From: Lytechinus pictus
Taxonomy: Eukaryota
Length of the DNA: 64,000 nt
NCBI RefSeq assembly: GCF_037042905.1
Contig: NC_087250.1
Coordinates: 16,432,001-16,496,000, forward strand
Direction of reading: 5' to 3'
Shown: positions 2,721-61,060 of the stretch, one piece after another
How the letters are laid out: every line of letters begins with the position of its first letter
Position numbering within the stretch: position 1 is the first letter of the stretch
The notes under the pieces: model-generated
What the model was told of the DNA's origin: nothing
The model's database searches: none
Seen by the model: only the letters and a program-made list of their open reading frames with translations
Made by a program: the position numbers and the translations under genes

Positions 2721-3953
2721 TATGTAAAGTTTGCATGGTAACTTGTTTTCATTTTTCTGGTGAAATTTTTAAAGTAACTTTCCGCGCGCCGGCTTCGAAT
2801 CTTCACCCGTGTGCCCCTCGATATTTGAGTACATTTAGAGTGACTATATTTCCATCCCAAATTTTTTAAAAATATGAGGATTTTTCAAAAGCCTGTGGAA
2901 ATGAATGCTTCATATTCCAGTCCCAAAAGGGGTCAATCTAAGCACTTTTTTAAGCGCTATGCATGAAAATTCTGAAGTGGATGTGGATAAGAGCGCGAAG
3001 CGCGAGCGAAAATTTTAGCCTATATAGTACATGGTGTTTTTTACCTGCTGCTAATATAAGAAAGCATGATTGCTTGTAAGCAAGCAACCAGAGGACCGAC
3101 GCACAGTGGGCCGGGGCGAAACAAAAGTGCGCCAAAAGTCATTTTGGGCAATTTCAGATTTTTATTTTTTGTTATGCCCAGGTGAAAGACAACACTTTGA
3201 AGAATACTTTAGCAAAATATTTCATTTCGAAATTTGCATAAAGGTTGTTAATTTCCAACCTCAAATCGTAAAATGTGACGTTTTGCGAAATATCGCGTAT
3301 ATGACAACCTAGTTGAAAAAAGGCCATTTCCCAGGAGGTTTTTCATGTAGGAATCTGAAATGGCTCCAACATAATCCTGATATATTCTTTTTTGTGTGTG
3401 AAAGGGTTCAAAGTAGATAAAAGACACCTTTCAGGAGGTTTATAGTATGATTATTCCTGGAAATAGGCTGAAAATCCATGTTTTTTGCATTTACATTAGA
3501 AACGTTTAGATTTCCGTAGATTTCCGTCTAAATTCTATCATCATCATTTTTTCCGATGTCTAAGCTTTAAGTCGATACCAAATTTAGCTGCCCGTTTTTG
3601 CCCGTTGTCATGTAAGAGCCGATTTTATTTGACACAACACCACTAGCGTACCTACGGGGGGGGGGGGGGGGGGCAGGGGGGGCACTCTGCCCCCCCTGAC
3701 GAGATTTCGAAGACCTTCGAAAAACGGTCATTTTTATACCGCGCAGTCATCGTAGCGCACCGTATGGGTGTACATTGCCGTTCGCTTTAGTACGGCGAGG
3801 ACGATTCCCCTTCCATTCCATGAAAATGACATGAATTCCGGGCAAAATGTAAACAAAATAAAGGTTGCTAACGCAAATAAGGGCTATACCCACAACTCTT
3901 CCAGAGTTAAAACTTACTTGTAGAATAATTTCAGCCCAAAACCCTCCTCATAG

Positions 3954-4817
3954 CAGGGGCGTCGATCCATTTTTCAGATTGGGAAGGCAAAATCATGAAT
4001 CAATGTTCCAAAGCCGCTTGATCGTACAAAACACCCCCCCCCCCACACACACACACATAGGCATATTATATATGTATATATATATATATACAGTGCGTCC
4101 CAGAAAAAACGAAACCGAGATTAAGCGATGATTTATCATAACTTAATCATAAATAAAATAGACAAATGACCTACCAATGTAAAGCTTAGAATCTCCTCTT
4201 TCATCTGGTATTACTTAGATTATTCCTAATTCACTAAAAAGTTCAATATCTGCTCTTCTATTTGATACCTTAATCACAGAAAATGGTCAAGAAGTAAAAA
4301 AGTTATGATCCTTCGAAACAATGCTTGTTTTTCCATAATTTCTTAAAATGAACATGTTTTCACCGGTTTCCCGCAGAAGCTATCGCACGGTAACAAAGGA
4401 CTTAATGCATGGTTGATCGTCAACAAAACGGAGTGTCGAGTGAGTTTGGACGCTTGCCTGTAAAACCTCTTCATTTTATGAAATTATTGAAATTCAAGCC
4501 TTATTTCAAATAACCAGAACTTTGTTATTTCTTGACCATTTTCTGTAATTGAGGTATCAAATTAAAGAGCAGATATTGAACTTTGTAAAAATGTGGTTTT
4601 CTTTTGCAAACCCAGATACGGCCCGCCAAGTGACTTTTTGGTATCCCCTTTTAAAATTGTTTTTGCTCACTCATGCGTGAATAAGAAATAAACTAAGTAA
4701 TTTCAGATGAAAGAGGAGATTCAAAGCTTTAAAATGGTAGGTCATTTGTCTATTGTATTTGTGATTAAGTTATGATAAATGATCGATAAATCTCGGTTTC
4801 GTTTTTTCTGGGACGCA

Positions 4818-4853
<36 letters not shown>

Positions 4854-5569
4854 ATATATGACTCATGAGATACAGACATGTATCTCACCAACAAATTAAT
4901 GCGAGCGCGAAGTGCGAGCTGAATTTTTTTAGTCTACTTACCTTAAAACAGGAAAAGCGTACCTGTTTAGGACTGTTTGTATAGTAACTCATGAGGAGGA
5001 TACATATCTAACTACACTAATGCGAATGCCGAGAGCGAGCCGAAATTTCTTTATATTCTGACCTGAAAGCTTGATATTCTAAGCATTTTTTGGTACCAAT
5101 GATTAAGATTAGTATAAAAAAGAACAAATCTCTCTCTAATAGCTTGCATCTCTAAAGAGCTGAAAATTTTGATATTTCGATCTGAAAAATAATGGACTTT
5201 TTTTTATAAAGAACAAGATATATATCCAACAAAAGATTATTGCAAATCGAAGCGGGAGTTATTTTGAGGGTTAGAACTGAAAACGGGACATTCTATTCAC
5301 TTATTTAATCATGAAAAGTATAGGTTTTTGCTACAGAAAAGATGCGAGTGCGAAGCGCGAGCTGAAAATTGTTGTATTCCAATCTGAAAAGCGGACATTT
5401 TGAGCACGATTTGTGTATCTCAATCTCACTTGCTGATTATTACAATCTTATTTTATTTTTGCACATCCGGAATTATTGGGGGGGGGGGGGGGGCAAAACG
5501 ATATGTTTGCCCCCCAATATTTTCATTGGTGGGGCGATCGCCCCCTGCCCCCCAGGATCGACGCCTCTG
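3954..5569. mobile_element. hAT-like non-autonomous element
   Basis: 15-bp TIR caggggcgtcgatcc / ggatcgacgcctctg (1 mismatch); 8-bp TSD cctcatag (3946-3953, 5570-5577). Confidence 0.88.
4091..4820. mobile_element. Tc1/mariner-like MITE in a (TA)n tract
   Basis: TIR cagtgcgtcccagaaaaaacgaaaccgagatt; TA flanks; ~90-bp deletion in the left arm relative to the other copies. Confidence 0.9.
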
Positions 5570-7752
5570 CCTCATAGTGATACATTCTTGGTGCTATATA
5601 CTCTGCATTTTACAAAAGTCAACACAGCTTCATAAAGCACGGTTTATATTTTCCAGATTTTATTTTTTTCTTTTTATAAATCTAATTAATGATCATTTTG
5701 ATGCCATAAAATTATTTTCTGTATCTCATACACACTTTTTAGGCATGTGAGAAGCCTAAACCAACATTCAGTCTGGTCAATCTTAAAGTAGCACATAGCA
5801 CAAAATTTATATACTTCACATTGTTAAAAGTAATTTGTCTTCACAGATAGGTTTTAAGTAGCCAATCAAAATTTGGTATCAAGGTGACGTCATATCGGCT
5901 TTAGATTATGTTCAGTCGATTCTACGCCCAAAATTACCCATAAACAACATGTTAAAATAAAAATCTAACACGGAATATAATTTTGGCGCACTTTCAACTC
6001 ATTCTGGCCCACTGTGCGACGGCTTAAGGTCCAAAGGGCACTAATGCACCAATTAGGAATCATATCCGGGTCACCGGAATCAGAACCCCCGCTCTACCTA
6101 CTGAGCTATCGTGCCTCTTTTGAGCTTGAAAGATTTATTTTTTATTTTCCAAGTCTTCACCTCACCCTATTTTATTCACTCTTCTGTCTCCTCTTATTTT
6201 TCCTCATTTTCCCTCCTCTATTTCCCCTTCTTTTCCCTTTTCTGATCTGAACCACAAATCAGGAGAAGTACTGCAACAAGTCGGCAATATGATACATAGA
6301 GTCACCTTAGAGGTCTAGTACCAGTAGGCCATTATCGTTATAAGATGAAATGAATATGCCTATTGGACGAAATGATGATTCGACAAGATGGTGATTGGGC
6401 CCATGGCAACGTTCCAAATGATTGTTAGCCGAAATGGGTTTCGACAAAGTGATCGACCAACTTAAGTTAGATCAAATGGAACATGGACGAAATGAGAGTA
6501 GACCAGGTGGTTATTAGACCAATTGGCTATTAGACCAAAAGGTAATAGAAGTAATGATATTGGACAAAGTGAATATTGGACCAATTGAAAAAAAAATACA
6601 ATTAGACTAAATGATAATTAACAAAACGGCTATTAGACGAACTGGCTATTAGACCAGATGGTAATTAGACGAAATGGTTATTGGACATTGTTGATTGTTG
6701 ACTAACTAATGGTAGACGAAATGATATCAGACCATGCGATAGTGGGGAAAAAGGCAGTAGACGAAATGGCAATAAACCGATAAATATCCATACAAAGAGT
6801 AATCCTGATTTCCAAATCACTTAATTCTCTTTCTCGTGTATCAAAATACTTAGTAAAAGTATTTTTTATATGTTATCTGTAACTTGAGTCCTGAAGAAAA
6901 TAACGCTGCGACATTATGCGTTGCGACATGTGACGTTATGCGTTAGAAAAACTACGACATTATGCGTTGACTGCGATATTATGCGTCGGACGCTCTTGGC
7001 ATAATGTCGCAATCTGCGACATTATGCGTTGGTGCGACATTATGCGTTGATGCGACATTAGGCACCTTTCGCAATCCTCTACAACGCGAGATTAGAGTCG
7101 GGTAACTCAAAAGTTAATGATTAATCATAGACTCGATTTCAGATTGATTGTACATTACAGTCAATACAATCAAACGTAGAAAACTGTTCTACAATCATTG
7201 CTAAGCTTTGTGTTACAGGCCCTATAGATCTTGCTTTTCGTGTGCAAAGCTCTTTCACACGATACCAGCATGGAGCTATAATAGCTCTATGATACCAGCA
7301 TGCCATGCCATTTGCCTGCCTCTGCTCGCGGCGGGACTGTACCTGTATCATGGCTATGACTCCAGCTGGCTGGAGAGATGCGAAATGTAGATTTTGACAT
7401 GGATAAGAAAATGGTTTTTCAGACAAATCGAGTACATATTGAGTAAGGAAAAACTTACCGAATTAAGGCTTAGATATAGATCATTACAGTCCATCGAATC
7501 GATATTGCATTTAATTAACATTATTGTTGGATCACTGGCAATTTATTCCATGAGTCAGATCACCTCTCCAGCCGGAACCATTTTCGCATGCGTTGACATA
7601 TACACAGCATGCAAGAGGCCATGAACCGTCTGAAAAAACATCTAAATTTGCGGGGGTTTTCTTCATTTTCCGCTCCCCATACACAAACGATATGCCTCTA
7701 GCACACAATGTAATGGGCAGTATGTTTTACTTTCCGCAGAAATGGGGGATTT

Positions 7753-14015: not shown

Positions 14016-14099
14016 ACTCGCTGGGCTTCTGTGGAAGCCCGTCGCACGCAAAGGGTTAACCCTTTGCGTGCGACGGGCTTCCACAGAAGCCCAGCGAGT
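14016..14099. repeat. Perfect 84-bp palindrome centred on TTAA (two piggyBac-like ends head to head)
   Basis: ...gcacgcaaaggg TTAA ccctttgcgtgc...; TTAA at 14056-14059. Confidence 0.85.
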
Positions 14100-17000
14100 A
14101 GTAGCTCAAAGTGATATTCCCGACTACATTAGTTTAATGCATTTAAATATAAGAAGTTTACCAAAAAACTTTGATACTTTCTGCGAATTTTTATCCACAT
14201 TAAACACATTTCCATTTTCTATTATTGGTCTCACAGGGACATGGTTGCATTCAATGTCTCCTCCAATTTACAACATTGATAATTACAACTTCCTCCATAC
14301 AGATCGAAAAGTTGGCAAGGGAGGAGGTGTCGCTCTCTATGTACATAAAGATCTTAATTACAAAGTAAGACATGATATTGAACTTCAAAATATAGAATCC
14401 TTATTCATTGAAATTTCTAACGCTAAAAATAAGAATAAAATAATCGGTGTAATCTATAGACCCCCAACCAATAATGCTGATATATTTTCAAATGAATTGG
14501 AGTCTAGTCTCGAATCAGTTTCCCGAGAAAACAAAAAATCTATATCATGGGCGACTTTAACATTGATTTGTCCTTTCCCTATACTACAATAGGTCAACAT
14601 TTTACTAATTTATTATCATCATTTGGATTACAACATCTCGTTAATAAACCAACTAGAATTTCTAACATATCAAATACAATACTTGATAATATTTTGTCTA
14701 ATGCACTTGATAAAAATGATAATGGAATAATATACTATGATATTTCAGACCATCTGCCTATTTTTGCAATGTATTCAAATGATAAACGCCCTCACCAACC
14801 TAGGGACAAATAAAACATAACCAGACGAAAAGAAACCCAACGTAATATAGAATCCCTGAAGGTAGATTTGGCTGAAGAAGATTGGCATGATATTTACCTA
14901 GAACAAAATGCAAATGACTCTTATGTAATATTCTTAAATAAACTTCTTTATTATTATGATAAAAACGTCCCATTACTAAGAGTTAAATCGAGCAAAAGGA
15001 AGAACAAACAACCGTGGGTTACACAAGGTATAATTAAATCCATATTTACTCGGAATAGACTTTATAAAATATCCATTAAATCGCCTACAATTCAAAACAT
15101 AAATAAATATAAAAAAATCCGCAACAAATTAACTTCAGTTATCCGCCTAGCTCCCAAATCTTACTTTTCTGATAAAATTGAAAATAACAAAGATAATAAA
15201 AATTTTTATTATGGAAATCTGTAAATGAGATATTAGGTAAGAAAAAAGAAAGCTATGATAACATTAATTTCGTAGAAAATGGTCAACACTTGCGAAACCC
15301 AAGTGATGTTGCTAATGCCTTTAATAACTTCTTCAATAATATCGGTCCAAATTTAGCTTCAAAAATAGTATCTAATGATAATGACTTTTCTGAGTACTTA
15401 AACGACTTTCCGGAAAATTCTTTATTTTTTAATCCGACTAATACTAAAATTGTTAGGTCTTTGAAACCGACTAAATCTTCAGGGCATGATGGAATAAGTG
15501 TCTTTTTATTAAAACAAATAATTCACTTTATAGCTTCACCGCTCATGCATATTTTTAACCTTTCTCTGTATCATGGCATAGTTCCCGATCCACTTAAGAT
15601 TGCAAAAATAATACCAATATATAAGAAAGATGATCCATGTCATACTTCCAACTACCGACCAATATCTTTATTACCGAGTATCTCTAAAATTCTTGAAAAA
15701 GTAGTTTACAAGCGATTGTATTCCTTTTTTAACAATAATAATATATTAATTCCAAATCAATATGGTTTTAGAGAGAATCATTCAACCGATCATGCTATTT
15801 TACAATTATTCGACAAAATATCTGATTCTCTCTCTAAAAAAGAACACACTGTTGGGATTTTTATGGATCTATCGAAAGCATTCGAAACAATTGATCACCG
15901 CATTTTACTTTGTAAATTAAAGAGATATGGAATCAGGGGGGTGGTTTTCACTTGGTTCAAAGATTACTTAAGTAATCGACGCCATTATGTTTCTTTCAAA
16001 TAAAAAACATCCAATATTTGTACAATGAAATGTGGAGTACCACAAGGATCGATTTTAGGTCCCTTGCTATTTTTGGTTTATATGAATGATATTGCAAAAG
16101 CATCTCGAGAATTAACATACGTTTTATTTGCAGACGATACAAATGTCTTCTATTCCCACAAAGACTTAAATATACTCGTCCCGACACTTAATTTTGAATT
16201 AAAGAAATTATCAAAATGGTTTAAAGCTAATAAACTCTCCCTAAATATAAGCAAAACTAATTTTATGTATTTTAAACACATTCAAACTAAACATATGTTC
16301 CTTAATATATACATAGATGACATACATATCATTGAAAAACAAGAAACCAAATTTTTAGGTGTATTGATTGACACAAATTTAACGTGGAACAGTCACATTC
16401 ACAATATTTGCATGATGGCATCCAGAGGAATAGGAATTTTGTTTAGATTAAAATATCATCTCTCCAAAAAAATCATTATTTATGCTTTATAATTCGTTCG
16501 TTTTATCCCACTTATCTTACTGCAACTTAGTATGGGGGTATAGTAGTAAGGTAAAAATAGAAACGATTTTCCGTCTCCAAAAGAAAGCACTCCGCATATG
16601 TACTCATTCACATTTCATTGCACATACTGATCCAATATTTCACAACTTAAAGACATTGAAAATTGAAGATATTAACATTTATCAAACGGCCATATTTATG
16701 TTTAAATTTTCATCCAATATTATCCCGATTCCATTTCGCAATTTTTTTGTTTACAACAAAGACATTCACAAATATCCAACACGACCTTCAACAGATCTTC
16801 ACTTAACCAACCCAAGAATATTACTCGCTCATAAGACAATACGCCACCATGGCCCAGATATTTGGAATGCATTGCCACATGATATTAAACAATGTACATC
16901 TCTCTATTCGTTTAAAGCTTCGTTGAAAAAAATTCTTATTTTTAAGTATACCTAATTTGATTCACCTGCACTCACCCACATGCACACACTTGCACTTCTT

Positions 17001-25200: not shown

Positions 25201-26593
25201 GTAAGCAAACATCAACAGCAATCCGGCACACCGAAAGCAGATTTTTATTTTTGAGAAACAAAAATGAATAAGTGATTTGATAAATAAAAACGAATCACAG
25301 TTAAACATAGTTAGCGTAGACTGTGTAGATTAGTAAACCCTTTCCCGGCTTGCAACGTTTACTAACGTAATCACGTTAAAACCATCCCCTTAATCTACAA
25401 ATGTTGGGTTATACGACCCAACAATTCGCTGTAAGCAAAATACGATTTATTTATTGCAAATCTTTATCAAGAGTAGCCTCTTCAGCTTTATAGAAAAAAC
25501 ATTTTAAATTACACAGTATATGTAACTAAAATGTTCAATAAAATCGCTTGCCTTCATCAGGGGACTCCATTATCATCTACTTTACATATCTACTTAATTA
25601 TCACGTAATGTTAATAAAATAAATGTATAATTATTGTCATTGAGAACGGACTAACACCATCGCACGTCTACGGCAGAAAGCCTGGCACATAAATCGAATC
25701 TGAAAACCATAAAGTTTCCATATGGAACACCGCTGGAATTTTTCTCGTTTTACGAAACGCAAAAACAACTGGCAGGTTACGATCGGAGATTAAACTGCTT
25801 CATATGTTACTACTTTGCGAATAAAGGTTGAGACTTGTGTTGTTGCATACTGTACATATACATTCTGATCTTTGTGCGATTGCATTATTGGTGTGTGACG
25901 TCATGTTAATTGATACTAAAGAGCGCTCACAATAGAAAAATATAATCTTGAAAAACTCTTTAGTAAAAGGCGTAATGACTCCAGACACGTACGTTCAAAA
26001 CTGATATACTTTTTGCATTTACCGGCGTGCAAAATAACAAAAGTTTAGACCCTACACGTCGTAGATCAGAGGACGCGCTTTTATCAAAGTGTGATATAGT
26101 CAGTTCCTAAATACATATTCGCTGGATTTTGGGGAGAAATCTAAATTATATATTTTTGTAAAGGTTAATGTATAAGGAATTAGAATAACAATGTTTCCAT
26201 TTGCACCGATACCTATATGGCCGCCATCTTGGATTTTGACAAAATGACCGCCAAAAAGGTTTTTTTCGACAATATCTCCGCTTCTAAGTAACCTACAAAG
26301 AATCATCATTTTGGCACCTAAACCACTGTGACAGTTCTGAGGTCAAGGAATGTATTGGTGTATCCAGACTCGGCTGAATTAACGTCCAAATTAAGCGTTG
26401 CAAATTAAGCGACCTGAATGATTTTGACACCTAAACCACCATTTTTGAAGTCAAAGAATTTATTAGTATCCCAATAATTAACTTTATCTGTTTGATCATT
26501 CGTAACTCTTTGTATAACGGGGCACTGAATTGACCACCCTGACTATTCACCTAAAAATTATATGTGATTTCAAATATTTTTGCCGTTTTACAG

Positions 26594-26908
26594 GAAGCTT
26601 TGAAATGGCACTTCTAAAGCAACTTCAGCCCTACTTCCCTTCAATGCACCACACCGTGGTGGAGCCGTGTGAGGAATTCATTTCTCACTACAAACTTCAC
26701 TCCGTCCTTGAGAATGTACAGTATGACTGGCAGCCCAAGACATTCCAGCAATACATGCACGACCATGAGTGCACTTCCAATGGTAGAAAATTCGACTTCA
26801 TCAGTGCTGTCAATTCTCTTTACTACACTGGCAATGTGAAAGAGACCATTCGCTTCCTCATTGATCAACTAACTGAATCGGGCTATCTTTTGGTAGTTGT
26901 CCGTTCAG
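26594..26908 (+). CDS. HNMT-like: Histamine N-methyltransferase-like protein, coding exon 2
   Basis: Acceptor ttttacag| in phase 1 completes SAM motif I GMGSGTG; VVEP, LENVQYDW and KFDFISAVNSLYY match HNMT; donor G|gtaag phase 1. Confidence 0.9.
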
Positions 26909-28364
26909 GTAAGAACCTTCTATCAGCCCCATCTCACCTTTGACGATTCTCCATCTCTCTAATGTATTTTTCCATTTTATACGGGCATCTTTAAAATTGG
27001 CGGTACACTATTGTTCTAACTTCTAACAGTTTTCCTTTCTGGGGCACTATTAATCAGAAAATGCAATATGTGTGTTTCCATTTGTGTTGTTGCATTTACA
27101 GTGGCGAACCTAGGATTTTCCACAGGGGGGGGGGGGGGGGGGCAAAACCGTCTGCCAAAAATTTGACAAGCCAAAATAAAAAATTCAAGATCGTCAGGAG
27201 GCAATAAAGGTCTTTAAGCTCGTCAGAGGGGGCAAAAAAGGTTTTTCAAGCTCGTCAAGGGGGGCAGGGATACGTCCTTTATATAGATTCTGTATATTCC
27301 CAGGTAAAATGTTGGCTGAACGTTGGAAACTTGGAATTCGTTGACCGTTGCAGGAGCGGATCCAAAAAGGGGGGGGGGGGGAGGGGGGGAGGGGGGGGGG
27401 GTTGCAGATCGCTGTAAAGGAGGTACTATAACCCATGTTTAATTTACGGCCTCGTAACGGCCGGTCCGATCCCCACAGATCCACTAACAGTGGCACCGCA
27501 TTCTTTTGGTTCACAAGGCAAACCGCGCTACCGCAACTGCGCGCGTATAAATACATTCTCCTAGCTCCATCAACGGCCGATTAGCTCTGCATCGGACAAT
27601 GTAGGAGGATTATCATATGCGCACAAGGAAGCCGTAAAACAATATAAGAAAACGAAATGCTTAAAGTGTCCGGTTTTCAGGTGTTAATATCAACGGATTT
27701 CGAGCTCTCATAATAGGAAAATATAACCAATGAGTCATCCTTTTAGTGATTTACGAAACAAGAATAGTGAGTCCCATTTTTAGGTCTGAATCTCATTTTG
27801 TTTGCTCGCATGCAATATTTAGTTATATACGAGCCCTGTTTATGATTACAAAGGTGCTTAGAATCTGGCGCTCGCATTATAATAATTTTGATTGTTGATA
27901 TATGTGGTTTTCACGGGTAACTGCAAACACTGTCCTTAAGGTCTATTTTCTATCAGACCAGAACGTATATCAAAAACGTAAATGATATTTTTATTTTATC
28001 CGTTATGATGATATGATCAATTATTACATTTTACAAAATGCTGCAGGGGTGACTGGCCTCCACAGATGACAGGAAAATTCATGGCAGATTTTGAGTTCAT
28101 GTATCTTGGTAAAACATGAATTATATAAATGGAATGAATAACATTTACAATATAATTCTAAGAATCTGTCGAAATCATGTGTTTAATTAAGACAGACAGC
28201 GTCACCAACAATAACAAACATTCGTACGAAATTGATAAAAATAGGTATTCTGTCGTAGACGGGTTTCCTTATGACACTATTTTTATGACACACACGTTTC
28301 GTGGCTCAAGTCACTTCCATATTTAACTTGTTATTTGCATTGCTCCAATTTGATACTAAAACAG

Positions 28365-28747
28365 AAAAGGGATCTGGTTTTCGGATCATCGTTAATTTTC
28401 CTGAGCTGCACCCAGCCTTCAAGCCAAGTTATTTCATCTCTTCGAAGACAGTATCTGAGGCAATTGCTGAATTGGGAATGACGGCCAAAGTGAATAGCCT
28501 GCGGACCAATGTAGACTTATCAGGTGTGTTCGACGATGATGATGCTGAAGGTGATGATCTGTTGGACCTATTTACGGGGGTAATGAATTTCCGAAGAACA
28601 GCCCCAGAAACCCTGGTTGAACGTGTTCTTAACTTCCTTAGACAAGAAAGTATCCCGGATTCTGAATCTGGCAAAATAAATTATATGAACCATTCTGTGT
28701 GTGTAGACTGGGACGCTATTTTAGTTGAGAAATTACACAAGCAATAG
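28365..28747 (+). CDS. HNMT-like: Histamine N-methyltransferase-like protein, coding exon 3 (total 909 nt, 302 aa)
   Basis: Acceptor acag| in phase 1 (weak pyrimidine tract); VDLSGVFDDDDAEGDDLLDLFTGVMNFRRTAP resembles the HNMT C-terminal region; TAG stop. Confidence 0.85.
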
Positions 28748-31276: not shown

Positions 31277-33259
31277 GTTTGAAATGTAAACATGAACGAT
31301 CAGACTTTTTTCTTTCTAGATTTGCAGTTTTTGTTTCTCAAATCATTAGAAAAATTGCGATTTTCACGAAGGAAAAATGTTGTGTCATTTTGTCAAAGCT
31401 TCGTTTTTCCCGAATCAATAGACGCTGTGTACAACAATGCGTAAGAGCGAACAGCACGCGCGGAAAACCAGGGTTCGATCAGTACTACATTGTCGTCTGC
31501 TCTCCTTGCTTTTGTTGATCTCGCTACTCATGAATCAGGGAAGTGGGGGGAGGGGGATTACCTCCCACTTCCCTGGATGAATGGTCTCTTTACGATCTAG
31601 TATAGAGGCCATTTATAAAGATTATAAATATGCCGGTACCTAATCTGTTTGGAGTAAAATCACAGCAGTGAAGTGGAAAGTGCTTTTATTTCCCAGAAAA
31701 AGAAAACAATTTCCCTTACCGGCACGATTGATTGATTGATAACGAATTTATTTCATTCCAAAATTTCAACAAGGTTACAAAGTTAAGCAAAATATAATAT
31801 AATATAATACATGATGATTGATTGATTGAAATCATTTTTCTTCATTTCAAACAAACTGACAAAGTAGGAACGAAACATAATATGAATAATAGAAATGAAA
31901 ATGAAAATTATGATCTCACTCGTGACAATTTTGTTAGCCTGGGGCTTCGTTATGTCAATATGGAGGCCTCATTATTGCTTTGTCACTAAAAATCGCGCTT
32001 TGTATAATCTTTTTATACGTTTTATTTCTCTTTTTACTCGTTTTTTCCACAGTTGTGATGATAAAATAATTTTGTTCATGAAGATTGTGTACCAGTATTT
32101 TATTTGTTTTCCTGTTGTTATTTCAAAAAGTAGAACGAGTTAAATTGGCTCAATTAGTGACACAGAAATCATCAAAAAACCCTCTTGTTCCTTGCCTCTT
32201 TCTATAGCTTCTTTCTTTTACATCTCTTTCCCCTTCAAAAGAGCCAGGCGAGTGATTACTATTTTTCACAATGATTAGTTTTTTTTCTCGGATGTATGTA
32301 GTTTTAGCATCCGCAATCAAAAGTATTTCGAGGTGTTCTTTCATTTTGTTCTATTAGTGCTTCTGATTTTTCCGTTGTTTTCACGACCAAGGCAAATAAT
32401 AATGAAAAAGAATCACTTTGATATACCCAATGGTTTGAATATTTGTATTCATTTTATATCTATATTTTTAATCGTTCAAAGTACATGAATTAAATGTTGC
32501 GGGGGGAAGCGGGGCCTGCGTAAGTCCTCCACCCCCCACCCTGCAAACATGTACAACATATACAAAAACGCGATTGATTTGTGACTTTTTACCCTTTCAC
32601 CCTCCCCTCCCACATTCGGATCAACACCTCCAAATGCTTTGCTGTGTAAAATTACGTCCAAATATAATTATATTTAGAGCAGGCCTTAACGTAGAAAAAA
32701 CAAATGGTCGACAATTTTTTTTTCATATGAGTCTTGTTTTACGGTGCTATTCGACAATAAAGAAATAATAATAAATCGGGGGAAAATAGGGACGTTCAGA
32801 ATATTTCTTTTGTGGGGGCGTCAAAAATGGAAGGAAAAAAAAGTCGGCAGGTTTGACGAGAGTTTGTTGTGGCAAACAGAGGGGTGTATTTGATTTCTTT
32901 ATTTTTATTTTTATTTTTTGGCCTAATGATAATTTTCTTTTTTTATTTCATCTGTTTCTACTGCTTATCTTTTGGTCCATTCTTATCTGGGAGAGGAAGA
33001 GAGTAAAGTGGGAAAAATTACATTTTTTTAAACGTAAGCTATGATCAATGTATTATGTACAACGTCATGAAAAACCAATGGGGTGGAACACTAGTAATTT
33101 AATAAAAAGATAATGTCATACAAATCATATTCTACAAATCAAGTTCAATATCTTATTTCAAATAATCAGAACTTTGTTAAATCTTAACCATTTTAAGTAA
33201 TTGAGGCATCAAATTAAAGAGTAGATATTGAACTTTTTTAATGTGGTTTTTTTCATATG

Positions 33260-35383
33260 CATTTATTTTGTTCATATATTGAAAATAACATTTACAAACA
33301 TATTGGAATATACAAGAAGTAGAAATAATTCATCAAACGAGGAGACAGCTTAGAAGGCAGATAAGCCTTATTGGTGCTGCCACCAATAGAACAAAATACA
33401 AATTTGTACCAAAAAACTTACAATATACAACACCTAAAATACCTAAATACGTAACATAAACAAAGTAACGATAAAGCCTGTAATACAGTAAATGAATTAA
33501 GTAGTGTAATTTTCAATTAAATATGATTTTAGTCTCCTTTTGAAAACAGAAAGGGAAGGGCTATATTTTATATGTAAAGGAAGGTTATTCCAAATGATTG
33601 GACCTTTGAAAAAAATAATTTTTTAGCAACATTGGTTCTCGTCAATGGTAAATGAAAATGAGAGGAACTGCGTGTATTATATGAATGACAATCGTCATTA
33701 AAAGCAAATTTATCAGAAAGACTTGGAGGAACAATCTTTTTATAACAGAGGTACATGAAAATAGCCAAGTTGAAGTAGCATAGATCAATTACATTTAAAA
33801 CCTTTAAGTGAAAAAATAATGGTCTGGTGTGAACAAGGTAACTGGAATGAGAAATAACTCTAATAGCTTTTTTTTGTAAACGTAATAATTTGGATATTGA
33901 ATAATTAGTAGAAGAACCCCAGACAATATTGCAGTATTGGAGGTAAGGTGATATTAAGGCGTTATAAATCATTAATAATATTGTCGGAGGGTGTACAATA
34001 TACCGATGTTTCTAGACATTTTGGTATAAATGTTGTCAATATGATTATTCCATGCTAATTTACTATCGATTATTACACCTAAGAATTTCAGTGACGTAGA
34101 TCTTACAATTGGGGTGTTATCTAATAAAACATTAATTATGTCATAATTGATTACCTTGTTTGTAAAAATCATGTAATGCGTTTTATTCATATTCAAAATA
34201 AGCTTATTAACAATCAACCAAGAGTTCAGTTTCATGAGCTCATTATTGAAAGTAAGAATCAGATTGTCTATATTATCATCTGAAAGAAAAACACTAGTAT
34301 CGTCTGCAAACAAAATAAATTGCAATTTGTTAGAAGCTTGACATATATCATTGATGTAAATAAGAACTAATAGGGGACCAAGAATTGAACCTTGTGGTAT
34401 TCCACATGTTGTAATATTAGAAACTGATACTTGATTATTGACAATAACATATTGATTTCTATTAGTGAGATAACTTTCATATAAATCTAAGAGCAAACCA
34501 CGAATCCCGTAATATTGTAATTTAGTTAATAAAATAGAATGACCTAATGTGTCAAATGCCTTGCTTAAGTCAAGAAACAAACCAATTAAATTACTTTTGT
34601 TGTCGAGGGTTTTACTAACTTTGAACGTGAAATCAATTAATGCAGAAGATGTAGAGTATCGAGATCGAAAGCCATGCTGACAATTAAAAAGAAGACCCCA
34701 TGGAAGACCAGAGTAATTTATGTCAATAACTCTGAAATGGGCTATCCTTTCGATTATTGTATTCTATCTATTCATTTGCAATTCATTTTGTTTAATCCCA
34801 TTAATGCCATTTATGTCATGTATTTATGTAATATATATTTCATGTTTTTTTTTAATAATCGAATAATAACAAAATTAAAAAAAAGATTATGATGCTCAAA
34901 ATATTTTAAAAGACGATTATAAAGACACTTTTCATAAATCTTTGAGAAAACGGATAGGACAGATATAGGACGATAATTGCTCATATTATCACATAAACCA
35001 TTTTTAAAGACCGGTATAACTTTAGCTATTTATAGGTTATGAGGAAAAATACCTGAGAGAAGTGAGGCATTGTAAATAATACATAGCGGGTAACAAATTA
35101 TATGAATGGCACGTTTGACAATCGATATATCAATATCATCATAACCAGAACTAGAACGGTTTCGTAATTGATTTACAATTTTGATTATTTCATTAGGGGT
35201 AATTGGCAAGAAAAAGGCAATATTATCATTTCGATCTAGGTATCGTAAAAATGCATTTTTCGGAGAATCTAAATATTCATCATTTTGAGCCAAAGATGGA
35301 CCAAAATTTACAAAATAACTATTAAATTCATTAGCAATTTCAATGTCACTAGATATAAATCGATTATCAACTACAATTTGACT
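33260..35383 (-). mobile_element. 5'-truncated degenerate CR1/L2-group LINE (RT region)
   Basis: FLDLSKAFDT, GIPQGSILGP, FADDT, YCNIVWG, HSYNTR. Confidence 0.92.
34681..34889 (+). mobile_element. Short LINE 3'-UTR fragment inserted into the antisense LINE
   Basis: Removing it restores FEHQHGFR; tga duplicated at both sides; A-rich tail. Confidence 0.65.
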
Positions 35384-35498
35384 CAGATGGCGTCATGCTG
35401 AACGACGGCATCACGCAATTTGGAAGTGCTGAATAATTCGTTAAAATCCTACGAAATCCACGAAATGAACTGCAAATAATAACTGATTTTAACATGAA

Positions 35499-36383
35499 AT
35501 GAGTGGAAACAAGGAAAAGAACAAAAGAGGACCATATTTGTTACGATCTAACAAGTTCACGAGAGATTTGAACATGTCTAATAATCAAGTCACCACGGAA
35601 GAGGACCATGCATTGGAAGCTGGGAAGACACCAGACATGGTAACACGTGCAGATTTTCAAAAACTGTCTAACCAGATTCTACAACGTTTGGATACATTGG
35701 GCTCTCAGATGACTGCTATCAAGAAGGATATTTCACGAATGCATACAACACTTGCTGATCTACAGGTGGCAGCAGCAGATTCGGCTTCAAGAATAAGTGC
35801 AATTGAAAATCAGGAAATTCCGAAGCTAAGAAAGGAGAAAAATGCTATGGAAGCACAAATTAAGGATTCAATCCTTGCTCTGGAGCTACACGATCGCAAA
35901 CTCAACCTTCTGCTGTACGGAATAGAAAAGGAGAAAGATGAAGATATTGAAAGGAAAGTAAGAAGCAGCATACAGAAATTAGGTTTTACCCAGGAGGAAA
36001 CGAGTAAAATGAAGTTCGTAAACGCCCACAGGCTTCCAAGACGCCAGATTCAGGGGGAGCGCAGAGGTCCGGATCCAATCATCGTTCGATTTATGAGTAT
36101 GTTCGATCGCGATGCAGTATTGAAAATATATCAGCGAAGTCAGCTGAAGAAAAATCACCATGCTCAACCAAGTTCTGATAGTCCACGGCTTCGAGTTGTC
36201 ATAGATCTTCCATTACAATTGAAAAAGCGACGGTTTGAGTTGGAAAATCACGCCTATCAACATGATCAATTGAGGAAAAATGAAAATAAATCAACAAGGA
36301 TCCGTCTAAATGGAATCAAGCTAACCCTAGAGTGTCGAGTAAAGGGATCAACATCACCTTGGATAGCACTTGTAAACGCTTGA
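35499..36383 (+). CDS. LINE ORF1p-like protein (coiled coil + L1-type RRM), 294 aa, with no ORF2 downstream
   Basis: Heptad-rich N-half; RKLNLLLYGI, AHRL and PIIVRF motifs as in the ORF1 at 43215-44072. Confidence 0.85.
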   Translation: MSGNKEKNKRGPYLLRSNKFTRDLNMSNNQVTTEEDHALEAGKTPDMVTRADFQKLSNQILQRLDTLGSQMTAIKKDISRMHTTLADLQVAAADSASRISAIENQEIPKLRKEKNAMEAQIKDSILALELHDRKLNLLLYGIEKEKDEDIERKVRSSIQKLGFTQEETSKMKFVNAHRLPRRQIQGERRGPDPIIVRFMSMFDRDAVLKIYQRSQLKKNHHAQPSSDSPRLRVVIDLPLQLKKRRFELENHAYQHDQLRKNENKSTRIRLNGIKLTLECRVKGSTSPWIALVNA

Positions 36384-40018: not shown

Positions 40019-43000
40019 CTATCTCTTATCGCGCTGTAACAAAAAGTGCCTATATCTCCTTTTGAATGAGTTCAATGTTGGTTTTTCTCTTAAAATTACT
40101 TCAATATTGTTCCAAATTTCTGGACCTTTAAAGAAAATATAAAATTTTGAGCTGTTTGTTCTTGTTTGGGGAAAATGATATTTACTGGATGATCTTGTAT
40201 TATAATTGTGAAAATCAGAATTGAATTGAAAATATTTTGAAATTTGAATGGGAATTTTATTTCTGTAACAAAGATACATAAAAATTGCAATATTATAGAG
40301 ATTTAAATCATAAATATTCAAAATCTGTAATTGAGAAAAAAGTGGCTTCGAGTGGGCAAGATAAGACGACTTTGTAATGATACGGACAACCTTTTTCTGC
40401 AATAGGTAGAGTCTGTTTATATATGAGCTATTTGAATTACACCAGGCTATATTACAATAGTTTAAATAAGGTAAAATAATTGCACTGTATATAGTCATCA
40501 ATATGAATTTTGGCAAGAATCGTAATCTGTTGATAATACCAACTCCTTTGGAAACTTTGTTACAGACGATACCAATGTGTTCATGCCATGTTAATTTGTT
40601 GTCTATTGTCACCCCTAAGAATGTTAATGAAGATACTAATGAAATTTTTTTATCCCCCATATTTACATGAAATTGAGTATCTAAATGCTTATTCGTAAAT
40701 ATCATATAATTTGTTTTTTTAATATTAAGTACTAGTTTATTTACAGATAACCATTTATCTAAAAGTACCAATTCACGATTAAATTTATCATTTAGTAACT
40801 GTGGGTTTGTATGTGACATGAAAACACTGGTATCATCTGCAAACTGAATAAAATCAAGATGACACGATACATTGTAAATATCATTCATATAAATAAGAAA
40901 TAACAACGGGCCTAAAATTGAACCCTGGGGCACTCCACATCTGCTGCATTCTGTTTCGGAAGTAATATTGTTAACATATACAAACTGTTTACGATCAATT
41001 AAATAGCTTTGACACCAATCTAATAACACACCCCTTATACCATAATTACTGAGTTTGTGTAACAAAATAAAATGATCAAGAGTATCAAAGGCTTTTGACA
41101 AATCAAGAAATAAACCCAACATAATTTCTTTCTTGTCAAAACAATTGCTAACTTTATGGATGAACTCAAGAAGTGCAGAAGATGTGGAATGCCCCGGTCT
41201 AAAACCATACTGATGTTCTGAAATGATATTACATTTTTCAAGAAAGTCATATAACCTGGAGTAAAAACACTTTTCAAGAATTTTAGAAAAGACAGGAAGA
41301 ACAGATATGGGTCTATAATTACTTACATCATTATGAGCACCACCTTTGTAAACTGGAATTACTTTGGATATTTTCATTTTATCAGGAAATACACCTTTGG
41401 CTATAGACATATTGAAGATTTTACAAAGAGGAACACAAATGACATGAATAACACGTTTAACAACATATATGTGTACATTATCAAAACCAGGACTGGAATT
41501 CTTTTTCAATTTACAAACTATTTCAATTATTTCTTTACAAGTGACAGGTGGAAAAAATGCAGTTTTCACATTGTTCTTTAAGAATGTTTGATAATTTACA
41601 TTAGAATATTGCACATTTCCCCTTAAGTTGTAACCAATGTTGACAAAATATTCATTGAATATGTTAGAGATTGCAGATTCATTTTGAATCAAATTATTAT
41701 CATGAGAAATTTCTACTATTTTCTTCCTATCTTTCTTTTTTGTACCAAGTATGTCTTGTAAAACATTCCATGTTTTCCGCATGTCACCCATAGCATTATC
41801 AAATTTATGTTTATAAAAGTTATGTTTAGCTTTTTTTAGGTCATTGTTCAACTTGTTTCGAAACTTCTTATATTTTTCGTGTCTATAAGCTGTTCGATTC
41901 TGAAGATATTTTCTATATAACTTGAATTTTTTATTGCACATAATACTCAGTTCCTTTGTGATCCATGGTTTGTTTTGTTTGCTCTTTTTTATTTTTACAG
42001 TTTTAATAGGGAAACAATCATGATAACATTCTAAAAATTGATGTAGGAAACAACTGTAACTATGATTTGGATCTTCATTAATAATCCATTTAATATTCTT
42101 GAGTTTATCCATAAACCTACCTATATTCACTTCACTAAGGTCACGTTTTTCAAAGGAATATGATTGACTTTTATTCTTTTCTTTTTTACAAATACTAAAT
42201 ATAGGTAAATGATCGCTGATGTCTGCAATCAAAACACCTGACATAATATGTACAAGTTTATTAGTAAAAATATTGTCTAAAAGGGAACTTGTATTATGAG
42301 TGGTACGTGTTGGAAAATATATTAACGGATACATAGAATTGATCATGAGAATATCTAAAAATTCGTCAACTGTTGAACTATTAAGGGAATTCATTAGATC
42401 GATATTAAAATCCCCAACTAAGAAGAGATCTTTATTTTCTTTATTAATAGATTCTAGAATAACATTCAGCATTCCAAGAAAATGAGGAATAGATTGACCT
42501 GGAGGTCTATATATTGAACCAAATACTGTTTTTTTTTTATAAGTATTAAATTCAATGAAAATGGATTCTATACAATCATTATTCACATCAAGATCTTTTC
42601 TATGTATAAAGTTAAGATCATTACGAATGAAAATCCCTACACCACCTCCTTTTTTCTTTTCTCTTGATTTTCCAATAAATACGTACCCACTTATATTAAA
42701 TGGTATATCATCAGGTTTTAACCAAGTTTCAGAGACTCCTATTGCACAAAATGTAAAATCTAAAATACTAAGTAGAGATAAAAGAGAATCACCATTTTTA
42801 AATATACTTCTACAATTTACATGCATGCATGAAAATACATCTCTTAATTCATTCAACTCCAGATTATTAATGCAACTATTGAATTCCTCAGGTAAGTATA
42901 CATGTAACTCTTTGGCGGGCTCACTATCACAATCTTCATTCAAACTTGGAGATAAAAATTGTTTCAATTTAGAAATATTTACGCCATGAACAGAATTGCT

Positions 43001-43021
43001 CGAACTGTCAGAAATAGGCAT
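40019..43021 (-). CDS. LINE ORF2p: APE endonuclease + reverse transcriptase, 1000 aa
   Basis: HVNCRS, SETW, IYRPP, GDFN, LDNIF, SDHLP; NYRPISVL, FLDLSKAFD, GVPQGSILGP, FADDT. Confidence 0.97.
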   Translation of the reverse strand: MPISDSSSNSVHGVNISKLKQFLSPSLNEDCDSEPAKELHVYLPEEFNSCINNLELNELRDVFSCMHVNCRSIFKNGDSLLSLLSILDFTFCAIGVSETWLKPDDIPFNISGYVFIGKSREKKKGGGVGIFIRNDLNFIHRKDLDVNNDCIESIFIEFNTYKKKTVFGSIYRPPGQSIPHFLGMLNVILESINKENKDLFLVGDFNIDLMNSLNSSTVDEFLDILMINSMYPLIYFPTRTTHNTSSLLDNIFTNKLVHIMSGVLIADISDHLPIFSICKKEKNKSQSYSFEKRDLSEVNIGRFMDKLKNIKWIINEDPNHSYSCFLHQFLECYHDCFPIKTVKIKKSKQNKPWITKELSIMCNKKFKLYRKYLQNRTAYRHEKYKKFRNKLNNDLKKAKHNFYKHKFDNAMGDMRKTWNVLQDILGTKKKDRKKIVEISHDNNLIQNESAISNIFNEYFVNIGYNLRGNVQYSNVNYQTFLKNNVKTAFFPPVTCKEIIEIVCKLKKNSSPGFDNVHIYVVKRVIHVICVPLCKIFNMSIAKGVFPDKMKISKVIPVYKGGAHNDVSNYRPISVLPVFSKILEKCFYSRLYDFLEKCNIISEHQYGFRPGHSTSSALLEFIHKVSNCFDKKEIMLGLFLDLSKAFDTLDHFILLHKLSNYGIRGVLLDWCQSYLIDRKQFVYVNNITSETECSRCGVPQGSILGPLLFLIYMNDIYNVSCHLDFIQFADDTSVFMSHTNPQLLNDKFNRELVLLDKWLSVNKLVLNIKKTNYMIFTNKHLDTQFHVNMGDKKISLVSSLTFLGVTIDNKLTWHEHIGIVCNKVSKGVGIINRLRFLPKFILMTIYSAIILPYLNYCNIAWCNSNSSYINRLYLLQKKVVRIITKSSYLAHSKPLFSQLQILNIYDLNLYNIAIFMYLCYRNKIPIQISKYFQFNSDFHNYNTRSSSKYHFPQTRTNSSKFYIFFKGPEIWNNIEVILREKPTLNSFKRRYRHFLLQRDKR

Positions 43022-43214
43022 TTATCCCACAATACACATACATTCACACACCTACATACAAATGCATACAATAAATAGATAAAATAAATAATGAGTAATT
43101 AGTAATAAGTAAGAAAATATGAAAAATAGGAAATAAGAACCAGAAACCTTCAACATACTTAAAAAATGATTGCAAGCTATACTTCAGGATCAAACAGAGT
43201 TCCAATCTAATACA

Positions 43215-44072
43215 TTACAAAAGTTCAAGGTCTTTGGTAGAGGTGATCATTTTTTTTATTTCATGTCCATTTGTAGTCTTGATGGAAGCAAATATCCTGC
43301 CGTCCAAAGACCAGGAGGAACTCACTTTTTGGTGCTTGAAAGTTTGTGACAAGAGATGATTGTTGTACTTCGTCAGATCCTCTATCACAACTATCCCAGA
43401 GTTCTTTAACTTACTACGCTTCTTGATGAATTCATACTTGGTCTTATACGACATAAATTTCACGATGATTGGGCGTGGTTTGTGGGTTTCCTTGGCAGCA
43501 CTAGCATATGAGTTTTCATGTGTGGACTGGAGATTCTTTTTTCCAATGCGATGTGAGCGATCGATGTCCTGTGAAGAGATGTGGATACCAATACGTGATG
43601 CTACTTCTTGCACGACATTATCGGTAACTTCATTGGCATTTTCTTTTATTCCCAAAATTCTGATGTTACTTCTCCTGGAGTATTGCTCAAGGTTGTTCAA
43701 TCGAAGTGACAATTCCTCAACAGATTCTTGCGTAGATTGCATCTTTTCTTGGATTCGTTGGAGATCATTGATTTTATCATTATTTGATGATTCACATTTA
43801 CGAAGAGCATTCATCTTTTCATCTAGCATTTCCTTCAATTTGTTTTCCCGTTCTTGCATATGTTCATCGAGCTTGATACGCTCTGTTTCCATGGCCTTAG
43901 CTACCGCAGACTGAACAGCTATATCTATTCTTTCAAGAAGATCCTTAGTCGAATCAAGGTTACCAAGAGATGGCGCCTCATCAGATTTATCTTCCTTACA
44001 TTCTGAAGAACATGCTACTTTTGATATAGTTTTCTGAGATTTATTGCTGGAAGTGGAACGAGTATCAGGCAT
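43215..44072 (-). CDS. LINE ORF1p (coiled coil + RRM), 285 aa
   Basis: LEQYSRRSNIRILGI, IDRSHRIG, RPIIVKF, EDLT motifs. Confidence 0.92.
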   Translation of the reverse strand: MPDTRSTSSNKSQKTISKVACSSECKEDKSDEAPSLGNLDSTKDLLERIDIAVQSAVAKAMETERIKLDEHMQERENKLKEMLDEKMNALRKCESSNNDKINDLQRIQEKMQSTQESVEELSLRLNNLEQYSRRSNIRILGIKENANEVTDNVVQEVASRIGIHISSQDIDRSHRIGKKNLQSTHENSYASAAKETHKPRPIIVKFMSYKTKYEFIKKRSKLKNSGIVVIEDLTKYNNHLLSQTFKHQKVSSSWSLDGRIFASIKTTNGHEIKKMITSTKDLELL

Positions 44073-45893
44073 AGTTCTAGATGTATGTGCTTTGAATTTT
44101 TACAAATAAATATAAGAATGAATCAGAAGAATGCAATCGGAAGACTAAACCACATGTAGTTGAGGAAATGTTTGTATTATCCATCATCAGAAGAAAGATT
44201 ACGTGGGACTGAAGTGAAGATTCAGCAAAAACCATGACAGCTTGCAGATATAAAATATTGGTTCCTGGTTCAAAATTAAGTTCAAAACTTATTTACATGA
44301 TGGTAGAAATAATCCAGTAGGCTAAGAATGATAAAAACACAAGTTCATTCCAGATTTAATAGAGAATATCACGAGAAACAAAATCCTGCAGTGTTTGCAT
44401 TCACCAGATACTTTTTTATATATGATAGATGGGGGGAAAGGATAAGGAAAGAAAACAATATATATATTTTTGTTAAGTCAAGAAGGAAAACAAATGCATA
44501 TGAAAAATAAAAAAACGATGAAAAGAAATAAAGACGGATAGAAAAGGAGAAAGAAAGAAAGAACATAAAGAAAAGAGCAAGAAATATATAGTTCGAGAAA
44601 AAGAAGGAAGAAAGAACTGGGAAAATGAGAATATGTATAAAACTTTGAAAAAATGGATAAAAGAATTAACGAAAGGAGGACATGGACAGAAATTATAGAA
44701 GGATGAAAAGAAACGGGATAGCCGATAGGAAAAATGCAATACAGTTTTTCTATCGTTTTATCTCATCAGTGAATTATGGTTTCCTAAAGATACGACATGA
44801 GTGAAACGTGCACAGCGAGGTAAATACAAATGAATCAAAGAGAAGACAGAGAATGGGGGAAATATACAAACAAATAAAAAAGAGAGAAGAAGAAAAAGAA
44901 AGAAGGGGGGAACGAAGAAAAATAAGAGAATGAAAAGTTAAAAAAAGTGTAATGAGCTAGAATTGAGAAGATACTGAAACCAAGGAGAAAAGGCGAACAA
45001 ATTAAATTGAATGAAGAAAGAAAGAGAAGAAGAATAAGAAAACAAGAAAAGTTACACGGGGGGGGGGGGGGAAGTAAAATAGATTTCAGCCTGGAATGGG
45101 CATGAAATGAAATGAATTGATATCTTTTCTTCTTGAACATCCCAGCCTTACAAAACCGTTTATTACAACCGATTAATTAACGACAATTCACACGAGCCGA
45201 GGAATGTTTTTTTAATCAAAATTGGATGTAAGATGAATATGTTTTTGTTTTACATAATTTCACTAAACAATTTGTTGACATCTCCCTATTATTTCATTGT
45301 GTTTATCTCGATTATAGTGTAAAAAGTCGTGATTGGCCCGTAACACGGTGAATATGTGATTTTGATTTGATTTTATTTTATTCAGACAGATAAATAAAAT
45401 ATTTACATGTCTCGGGTTGCAAAACAAGGTTTAGGAAAACCCATACAAGTTGGCATCCCAGATATATAAAACGAAGTACAAAACATATCGATGACATTAA
45501 CCAAGTAATACAAATACATAATATAAAGGCAGATAAAAGATTAATTGTTAAGTACAACATCAGGGTTACAAAAAAAAATTCTTCAAAATACTAAAATTGC
45601 TTGAAATAAATAACTCAAATGTCTAATTGGAGATGTACTGAGAGATGGTCTATAAACTACTCTTTCGGGGAGTTGATTCCACTCATTGATTGTTTGAGGA
45701 TAAAATGATTTCATATAATAGTCTGTTCTGGCATGTGGAACACTCATCTTAAAATTATTATCATTTCTTCCTATTCTATTCGCTTGTGTGCACCTAGTTA
45801 TTTCACCTACATTAACAATCTTATTTAGTATAAAACAAGTCTATGGTATTTTTTTTTTTTCTAATGAATTCAGTTTAACCTTTTTTAACAATA

Positions 45894-46959: not shown

Positions 46960-48146
46960 AAGCCCCTTTCACAATTGACGTACGACCATTTGCGACCTTT
47001 TGGTCGTGCGACAGGCTGCAACAGGCATCAATCGCTAGTCATCTCATAAGATCGCACAGAGGCTTTCACAGTTGCAACAGCTGTCGTACAACAAAACAAC
47101 CAGTAAACCCCGTTGCACGAGTAAGTCGCATATACTCTTGTTGTGCTCGTGCGATCACATGCGAGTGTTGCACGAGGGATTGCGAGTGGAACGGTCGCAT
47201 ACATACGAATGAAACGGTAGTGCAATGTTGTAAGCCGTTGCGATCGGTCTTGCAACAGTCTTATGACCCATATTATCATCGCAACCAGTCGCAAGACAGG
47301 TCTCTGTACATGTAGGTCGCTTGCACATGTGCAAGTGTTGTACGACCTCCAGTCAAGTAAATGCGACTACTTAGTTGTGCCACCCCTCGCACCAAGTCGT
47401 ACAACGTTGAACAACACTCGCACGATGATCGCCCGACCGATGGTACGACCCCGGGTACGGCCTGATGCGAGTGAATCGATCGTATTTGATCGCGTTCGGA
47501 TTTTGAACATGTTCAAAGTTCAGATGTGACCAGTCACGACCACCTCGAGTTCGTGCGACCGTCTACAACGACTGCGAGTGCTCGCAAGACACCAAGAGAT
47601 TGATCGTGCAACACCAAAAAAAAAATGTTGCAGGCGGTCGTAAACTGGTCGGACGTCAATTGTGAAAGGGGCTGAACGGTCGCATACATGCGAAAGCAAC
47701 GGTAGTGGAATGTTGTAAGCCGTAATTTCGATCGGTCTTGCAACAGTCTTATATTATCGCACCCAGTCGCAACACTGGTCTCTGTAGGTCTCCAGCACAT
47801 GTGCAAGTGTTGTACGATCTCCAGTCGACTAAATGCGACTGTACTTATTTGTGCCACCTCTCGCACCAAGTCGTACAACGTTGAACAACACTCACACGAT
47901 GATCGCCCGACCGATGGTACGACCTGTTGCGAGTGAATCAATCGTATTTGATCGCGTTTGGATTTTGAACATGTCCAAAGTTCAGATGCGACCAGTCACG
48001 ATCACCTCCGACCACCTCGAGTTTGTGCGATCGTCTACAACGACTGCGAGTGCTCGCAAGACACCAAGGGATCGATCGTGCAACAACAAGAAAAAACTGT
48101 TGCAGGTGGTCGTAAACAGGTCGTACGTCAATTGTGAAAGGGGCTT
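46960..48146. mobile_element. TA-flanked non-autonomous DNA transposon with a duplicated right half
   Basis: TIR aagcccctttcacaattgacgtacgacc; TA TSD; extra internal right end at 47647-47673. Confidence 0.85.
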
Positions 48147-49195: not shown

Positions 49196-49235
49196 GGGGC
49201 CGAGGGGGAATTGCCTCACCCCCCACCCCCAGCTC

Positions 49236-50030: not shown

Positions 50031-50039
50031 TGTTAACCT

Positions 50040-61044: not shown

Positions 61045-61060
61045 TACAGTGCATCCCATA

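Follow-up and report, generated by a model that had tools for sequence, protein, structure and literature searches.

A probable non-autonomous Transib element with equally spaced, recombination-signal-like ends in the sea urchin Lytechinus pictus

Introduction

Whether the two ends of a transposable element resemble each other, or instead differ in the manner of the paired 12- and 23-recombination signal sequences (RSSs) of V(D)J recombination, is the question raised by an element at positions 3102–6016 of a 64,000-nucleotide stretch of Lytechinus pictus DNA (contig NC_087250.1, positions 16,432,001 to 16,496,000, forward strand; assembly GCF_037042905.1), the whole of which is referred to here as the window. 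A preliminary description of the element had compared its left end to a V(D)J 12-RSS, attributed its movement to a Transib or RAG1-like transposase, and suggested that asymmetric ends might reflect 12/23-like spacing. In the analysis described below, the element was found to have two ends with the same spacing—that is, ends that form no 12/23 pair—and the 12/23 reading is not supported. In all likelihood, it is an ordinary non-autonomous Transib copy moved in trans by a Transib transposase encoded at another place in the genome.

Borders, ends, and target site of the element

The heptamer CACAGTG starts at position 3102 on the plus strand and at position 6016 on the minus strand, and both copies are exact and bordered by CGACG, in agreement with the target site duplication (TSD) of 5 bp noted previously. 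The window contains four forward and three reverse heptamers, among which 3102/6016 is the sole pair with a common 5-bp flank. The left end reads CACAGTGGGCC GGGGCGAAACA AAAGTGCGCCAAAA and the right end CACAGTGGGCC AGAATGAGTTG AAAGTGCGCCAAAA—that is, with positions 1–11 and 23–36 identical between the ends, and with the intervening spacers differing at eight of 11 positions. The earlier details of the terminal repeat, including CCAAAA located 23 bp past the heptamer at both ends, were correct, but the extent of this identity had been under-described. A search for the bipartite pattern (11 bp + N11 + 14 bp, with at most three mismatches) returned only these two places in the window, a result equaled by none of 100 shuffles, and the two-block end structure is beyond chance. 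No further copy of the left or right end was found within the 64-kb window.

The element borders were examined using contig sets from four public runs, namely X1, X4, and X2 (organism A; 2505, 3642, and 2178 records, respectively) and X9 (organism B; 296 records), aligned to positions 2730–4030 of the window, with the results drawn from the best 24 of 975 loose-end rows and from 40 of 241 variant rows. Contigs departing from the window at 3101 were observed to resume with GCTTAAGGTCC, which corresponds to the 11 bases 6022–6032, in at least 69 (X1), 64 (X4), 57 (X2), and 16 (X9) cases. Other copies of the host repeat in which the element resides carry one CGACG, without the element. Because the host-repeat contigs run from 3101 straight into 6022, both the borders of the element and the 5-bp length of the duplication are fixed. 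Furthermore, a single variant letter inside the element occurred, among the matches listed, in as many as 45 distinct contigs of X1 and 59 of X4, and the element therefore belongs to an interspersed multi-copy family. At 21 or more positions in 772 aligned core bases, most of the contig depth has a letter other than that of the window, and the window copy is thus at least 2.7% diverged from its family. Overall, the element inserted at CGACG inside a dispersed repeat with a 5-bp duplication, its family spread, and this copy later received a hAT-like insertion (holding a miniature inverted-repeat transposable element, MITE) as well as a G-rich one (Table 1).

Table 1. Coordinates of the element, its ends, its host repeat, and the insertions that it carries (positions in the window).
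Feature	Positions	Strand	Remarks
Host repeat, part left of the insertion	3058..3101	-	Each of the four runs shows loose ends at 3057 and 3101
Left copy of the 5-bp TSD, CGACG	3097..3101	+	Flank match and empty sites of the host repeat
Non-autonomous element, probably of Transib type	3102..6016	.	2,915 bp including nested insertions; core ~1,211 bp
Left 36-bp bipartite terminal repeat	3102..3137	+	11-bp block containing the heptamer, 11 variable bases, and 14-bp block AAAGTGCGCCAAAA; 32/36 to the Transib-N1_SP end by eye
Putative "12-RSS nonamer" ACAAAAGTG	3121..3129	+	The block common to both ends opens with its last six bases
Nonamer-equivalent GCCAAAAGT	3131..3139	+	Published Transib register (positions 30–38, 22-bp spacer); right end has GCCAAAATT there
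G-rich piece of another repeat, ~80 bp	3641..3720	+	Similar stretch at 17500–17395; missing from other copies; borders approximate
Nested hAT-like non-autonomous element	3954..5569	.	15-bp inverted ends starting CAG; 8-bp duplication CCTCATAG (3946–3953, 5570–5577); superfamily judged from duplication length
Tc1/mariner-like MITE	4091..4820	.	Long inverted arms, TA run; inside the hAT-like element; superfamily judged from TA flanks and CAGTG ends
Right 36-bp terminal repeat	5981..6016	-	Both blocks, equal spacing; matches the left end and Transib-N1_SP at 28/36 each
Right copy of the 5-bp TSD, CGACG	6017..6021	+	Flank match
Host repeat, part right of the insertion	6022..6117	-	SINE (short interspersed nuclear element)-like by eye; minus strand carries A-box-like TAGCTCAGTAGG

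Another heptamer of the window, at position 26330, was considered as an alternative end and rejected, since no partner with a 5-bp duplication was found. In this region (26200–26440), the minus strand carries at 26330 a CACAGTGG...GCCAAAA motif with a short gap; a near copy lies at 26418–26439, and GCCGCCATCTTGG occurs about 100 bp off.

Relationship to Transib-N1_SP

Transib-N1_SP, a non-autonomous family of Strongylocentrotus purpuratus, has CACAGTGGGCC AGGGAGGAACC AAAGTGCGCCAAAA at both ends (PMC1131882 Fig. S4g; Kapitonov and Jurka, 2005). Comparison by eye showed both blocks to be exact at the two ends of the present element. Among the 11 Transib-N1_SP copies, and likewise by eye, the left flank ends in CGNCG in 10, a perfect 5-bp duplication is present in eight, and CGACG stands on both sides in three (PMC1131882 Fig. 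S4g); nine of the copies span 866–920 bp, and the others 558 and 992 bp (PMC1131882). The element studied here thus shares with Transib-N1_SP identical positions 1–11 and 23–36, the heptamer CACAGTG, a 5-bp CGNCG duplication, a small size, and equal spacing at both ends, and differs from it in having a core of ~1.2 kb and, in this copy, nested insertions.

The same end pattern was sought more widely, with no match in viral contigs, none in prokaryote genome contigs, and two in metagenome contigs (L001 and L002). Both blocks are present in these two contigs, with different spacers, and each contig holds one single end with no partner. L001 and L002 are, respectively, 63% (156 columns) and 58% (189 columns) alike to the left arm of the element, and their flanks end in CGGCC and CGACG; together with CGACG in the window, these three sites, two of them from another organism, all represent a GC-rich target. 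L001:50–380 and L002:526–197 are 87.6% alike over 330 bp and distant from the left arm in the window, as in a related family from another organism. L001 also contains a tandem palindromic repeat at ~640–1050.

Overall, the end-based features of Transib elements that could be examined—namely a 5-bp duplication, a CAC heptamer, a second block, a GC-rich target, and multiple copies—were all observed. The element is very probably a non-autonomous Transib closely related to Transib-N1_SP. The end type of this family is already published, and its known range now takes in two metagenome contigs and at least one further genome. A search of the literature for the end motifs returned no relevant main text beyond PMC1131882 and nothing in the supplement text of PMC9435367. 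The 1.2-kb family itself was not found in print, in a search that did not extend to Repbase, and supplements with end alignments may list it. RSS-like Transib ends, with these conserved blocks and this target preference, were already published in 2005, and true 12/23 Transib families are likewise on record, so that the present family adds little significance in this respect.

Spacing of the two ends

The left heptamer is followed, as the preliminary description had stated, by 12 bp and then ACAAAAGTG, which matches the nonamer ACAAAAACC at six of nine positions. The asymmetry built on this observation was not supported. In Transib elements, the nonamer-equivalent comprises positions 30–38 of a 38-bp terminus, with key adenines at 34–35 (PMC1131882), and GCCAAAA occupies positions 30–36 of both ends here, with AA at 34–35 as in Transib, placing the nonamer-equivalent 22 bp from the heptamer on either side. 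When the two ends were aligned to each other, the best offset was 0 (20/34), with the shared block in register; the next best was +13 (15/34), and offsets of 10 or 11 in either direction gave 7–13/34. A distal motif shared by the ends and shifted by ~11 bp between them, as in a 12/23-type pair, was not seen, and the ends are equal in length. The nonamer score of the left end is 6/9 at both 12 and 23 bp, while that of the right end is 3/9 at 12 bp and 5/9 at 22 and 23 bp.

Six of the nine bases of ACAAAAGTG (AAAGTG) are part of the block found at both ends; of its six nonamer matches, three come from this shared block and two more (AC) are common to Transib-N1_SP. The same 12-bp register scores 5/9 at both ends of Transib-N1_SP (ACCAAAGTG), 5/9 in L001, and 4/9 in L002. 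With the two blocks held fixed and positions 12–22 randomized, a score of at least 6/9 at 12 ± 1 bp at either end was obtained in 25.4% of 200,000 trials, and the probability of an exact ACA at one of the two ends was 0.035. The 12-bp motif was unique in the window according to a window-wide shuffle test; this null was set aside as unsuited to the motif, because it does not keep the known terminal repeat (heptamer and block) fixed.

The ends resemble the recombination signals of antibody genes because all Transib ends do. With the V(D)J 12-RSS and 23-RSS they have in common the exact consensus heptamer, AA at nonamer positions 5–6 in the 12- and 22/23-bp registers, and the 6/9 score on the left; unlike V(D)J signals, however, they lack ACAAAAACC, their conservation reaches into the "spacer" (8–11 and 23–29), no 12/23 pairing is present, and they flank a transposon rather than gene segments. 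A CAC heptamer, an A-rich second block, and a 5-bp duplication are likewise shared with the 12/23-type families Transib5, Transib2_AG, and TransibN1-3_AG (PMC1131882 Fig. 4C legend, Fig. S4a-c), but those families show a real difference in spacer length—by eye, the shared motif of TransibN1_AG follows a spacer of 12 bp on one side and of 23 bp on the opposite side (PMC1131882)—and the present element shows none.

Several points weigh against the reading of an ordinary Transib copy with symmetric ends. Its spacers diverge between the two ends, whereas the consensus ends of Transib-N1_SP are perfect repeats, and the proposed kinship with that family would be one of ends and target site. The empty sites described above are paralogous copies of the host repeat, at a different locus. 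No variant was found at 3102–3164 among the matches listed (40 of 241 rows), and the ACA of the left end may be the usual left-end sequence of the family rather than an accident of this copy. In addition, at each of the four ends available, namely the left and right ends in the window, L001, and L002, the shared block contains two A-runs at a distance of 10 bp.

These last points bear on a second explanation, in which the transposase would use a 12-bp register on the left (ACAAAAGTG) and a 23-bp register on the right (CCAAAA), with sequence, rather than spacer length, giving a 12/23-like rule. The two A-runs sit on nonamer positions 5–6 in both the 12- and 22/23-bp registers at all four ends, the 12-bp score of the left end exceeds that of the right (6/9 vs. 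3/9), and positions 3121–3123 show no variant among the matches listed. The existence of true 12/23 Transib families (PMC1131882) is also consistent with this explanation, as is the observation that HzTransib transposed 12-RSS substrates more easily than 23-RSS substrates (PMC4840297). However, the left end scores equally well at 23 bp, a quarter of random spacers reach 6/9 near 12 bp, and the ends have no length difference of the kind seen in TransibN1_AG. Transib-N1_SP spread with identical ends that carry ACCAAAGTG at 12 bp on both sides (PMC1131882), and positions 20–22 vary among relatives, being ACA at the left end in the window, GCA in L001, and GTA in L002. Furthermore, the Drosophila families TransibN1_DM and TransibN1_DP have GCCAAAA at 30–36 together with, by eye, a T-run at positions 22–25 (PMC1131882), a feature that speaks against interpreting the inner A-run as a nonamer read in one direction. 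A register that differs between the ends is thus regarded as improbable, and there is similarly only a small chance that the ends are bivalent, in that their two A-runs, spaced by one helical turn, occupy the nonamer core in the 12- and 23-bp registers alike, with the left end having drifted toward a 12-RSS while the right end keeps the 23-bp register only. If this were true, the element would represent a living intermediate, in which a 12/23 rule emerges from symmetric ends by point changes, without insertion or deletion, and would offer a testable route to the 12/23 rule, the origin of which is disputed between Transib and RAGL-A ends (PMC8355894 vs. PMC10462144).

Source of the transposase

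As the preliminary description had recognized, no transposase is encoded in the element: none of the 55 overlapping frames of at least 35 amino acids (aa) reached the Pfam cut-off. Sub-threshold matches to TrbL_3 and DUF6686 were dismissed as noise. The longest open frame of the core, with nested insertions removed, has at most 84 codons. An autonomous Transib partner would be expected to carry these ends around a DDE transposase of ~700 aa. Elsewhere in the window, no transposase was found in 114 of the 138 other frames of at least 75 aa, in which Pfam detected only long interspersed nuclear element (LINE) and methyltransferase domains; the 24 frames left unscanned are of low complexity or overlap LINE frames on other strands or in other frames.

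With respect to the mover, the element could in principle be a miniature derivative mobilized by a RAG1L-RAG2L (ProtoRAG/TransibSU) transposase. RAGL transposons have been reported to have CAC ends, 5-bp duplications, and gene-less derivatives (PMC10462144, PMC4411706, 10.1101/100735, PMC7204232), and RAG1L-RAG2L loci occur in sea urchins (PMC4411706). Many RAGL ends, however, have an adenine-rich conserved TR2 block beside the heptamer (PMC10462144), whereas positions 8–11 are GGCC at both ends here. The ends instead match those of Transib-N1_SP, a family filed as Transib (PMC1131882), although its assignment to a plain Transib mover is itself one made from ends. In echinoderms, moreover, no intact transposable RAGL element is known, and Transibs with intact ends are common (PMC10462144). 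The features of RAGL elements, TransibSU, the subgroups, and hAT5 considered here were taken from PMC4411706, 10.1101/100735, PMC7204232, PMC9435367, PMC8355894, and PMC12730594. In comparison with ProtoRAG/BbeRAGL-B, PflRAGL-A, and TransibSU, the element shares the CAC ends, the 5-bp duplication, and the gene-less state, but RAG1L and RAG2L sequences are missing from it, its heptamers have no adenine-rich TR2 as a neighbor, and its ends lack the 10-bp length asymmetry of the PflRAGL-A kind. A RAGL mover is accordingly judged to be very unlikely.

Chapaev elements produce 4-bp duplications, and the duplication here was fixed at 5 bp by the empty site. A mover from hAT5, Chapaev, or another member of the CACTA-Mirage-Chapaev-Transib clade would be compatible with the 5-bp duplications of hAT5 families and with the CA..TG ends and 2–5-bp duplications of the wider clade (PMC12730594). 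In hAT elements, however, the third terminal position is G and a second conserved block is lacking (PMC1131882 Fig. S7 legend), whereas CAC and a 14-bp second block are present here, and such an origin is scarcely credible.

Thus, given ends like those of Transib-N1_SP, a CGNCG target, empty sites, and no coding content, the element is best explained as a non-autonomous copy of Transib type moved in trans; the attribution to a Transib or RAG1-like transposase is supported with respect to Transib, and a RAG1L/ProtoRAG mover is the less likely of the two. A Transib transposase supplied by another locus of the genome would bind two alike ends, each composed of the terminal CAC heptamer and the block at 23–36, use nick-and-hairpin chemistry to cut where the heptamer begins, and insert the ends with a 5-bp stagger into GC-rich DNA. 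Since both ends offer a nonamer-equivalent at an equal spacing of 22–23 bp, their pairing would be symmetric, and the 12-bp nonamer look-alike probably stems from the A-run with which the shared block opens, together with the AC already present in the related symmetric family. HzTransib has been described as showing nick-and-hairpin cutting, GC-enriched 5-bp duplications, and ends that are like the RSS heptamer with little likeness to the nonamer (PMC4840297, PMC10462144).

Host repeat, nested insertions, and other repeats of the window

The host repeat was labeled SINE-like by eye, with no tRNA call in it by ARAGORN or Rfam. After the 11 bases common to the empty sites, other copies of the host repeat continue with TCTCCGAGGGACCTGG, and the window continues at 6032 with AAAGGGCAC, a piece seemingly having been lost here. 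Two Transib-N1_SP copies have flanks that resemble the host repeat by eye: the left flank of Contig29183 ends in AACCAGGGACCGACG (vs. AACCAGAGGACCGACG here), and the right flank of Contig23311 reads CGACGGCTTTCAGTCCTC (vs. CGACGGCTTAAGGTCCTC in the empty site) (PMC1131882 Fig. S4g). From these two of 11 copies, the host repeat may have served repeatedly as an insertion target in two sea urchins.

Within the element, contig alignments joined ~3599 to 3721 and showed loose ends before 3720 among the matches listed, which identifies the G-rich piece as foreign. Contigs departing at 3953 were observed to resume at 5578 in at least 11 (X1) and 15 (X4) cases, and in none for X2 and X9 among the matches listed; because other copies join 3953 to 5578, the hAT-like element is a later insertion. 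Sequence belonging to the nested hAT-like and Tc1/mariner-like elements, as copies or fragments, recurs at 3–1517, 60727–61841, and 33152–33253, and the arrangement of a MITE inside the larger element at 4233–5466 is repeated at 157–1517. The whole nest is enclosed by long inverted arms at 1589–2270 and 6389–7060, which are 89.8% alike over 687 columns, are rich in 16-bp and 18-bp subrepeats, and appear foldback-like.

Farther along the window, two open frames at 26518–26943 and 28289–28747 resemble exons of a methyltransferase gene, with the first matching Pfam Methyltransf_23 and the second having no Pfam match. A LINE on the minus strand (40019–44099) has an unbroken frame of 1000 aa for endonuclease and reverse transcriptase, and an upstream 294-aa frame, with no Pfam match, may be its ORF1; broken LINE copies were found at 14017–16955, 33568–36383, and 47982–49016. 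A short tandem array at 60474–60912 is open in several frames, with a unit that translates as SIGPAVYRTRGLSDPR, and similar words end the frame at 49128–50075.

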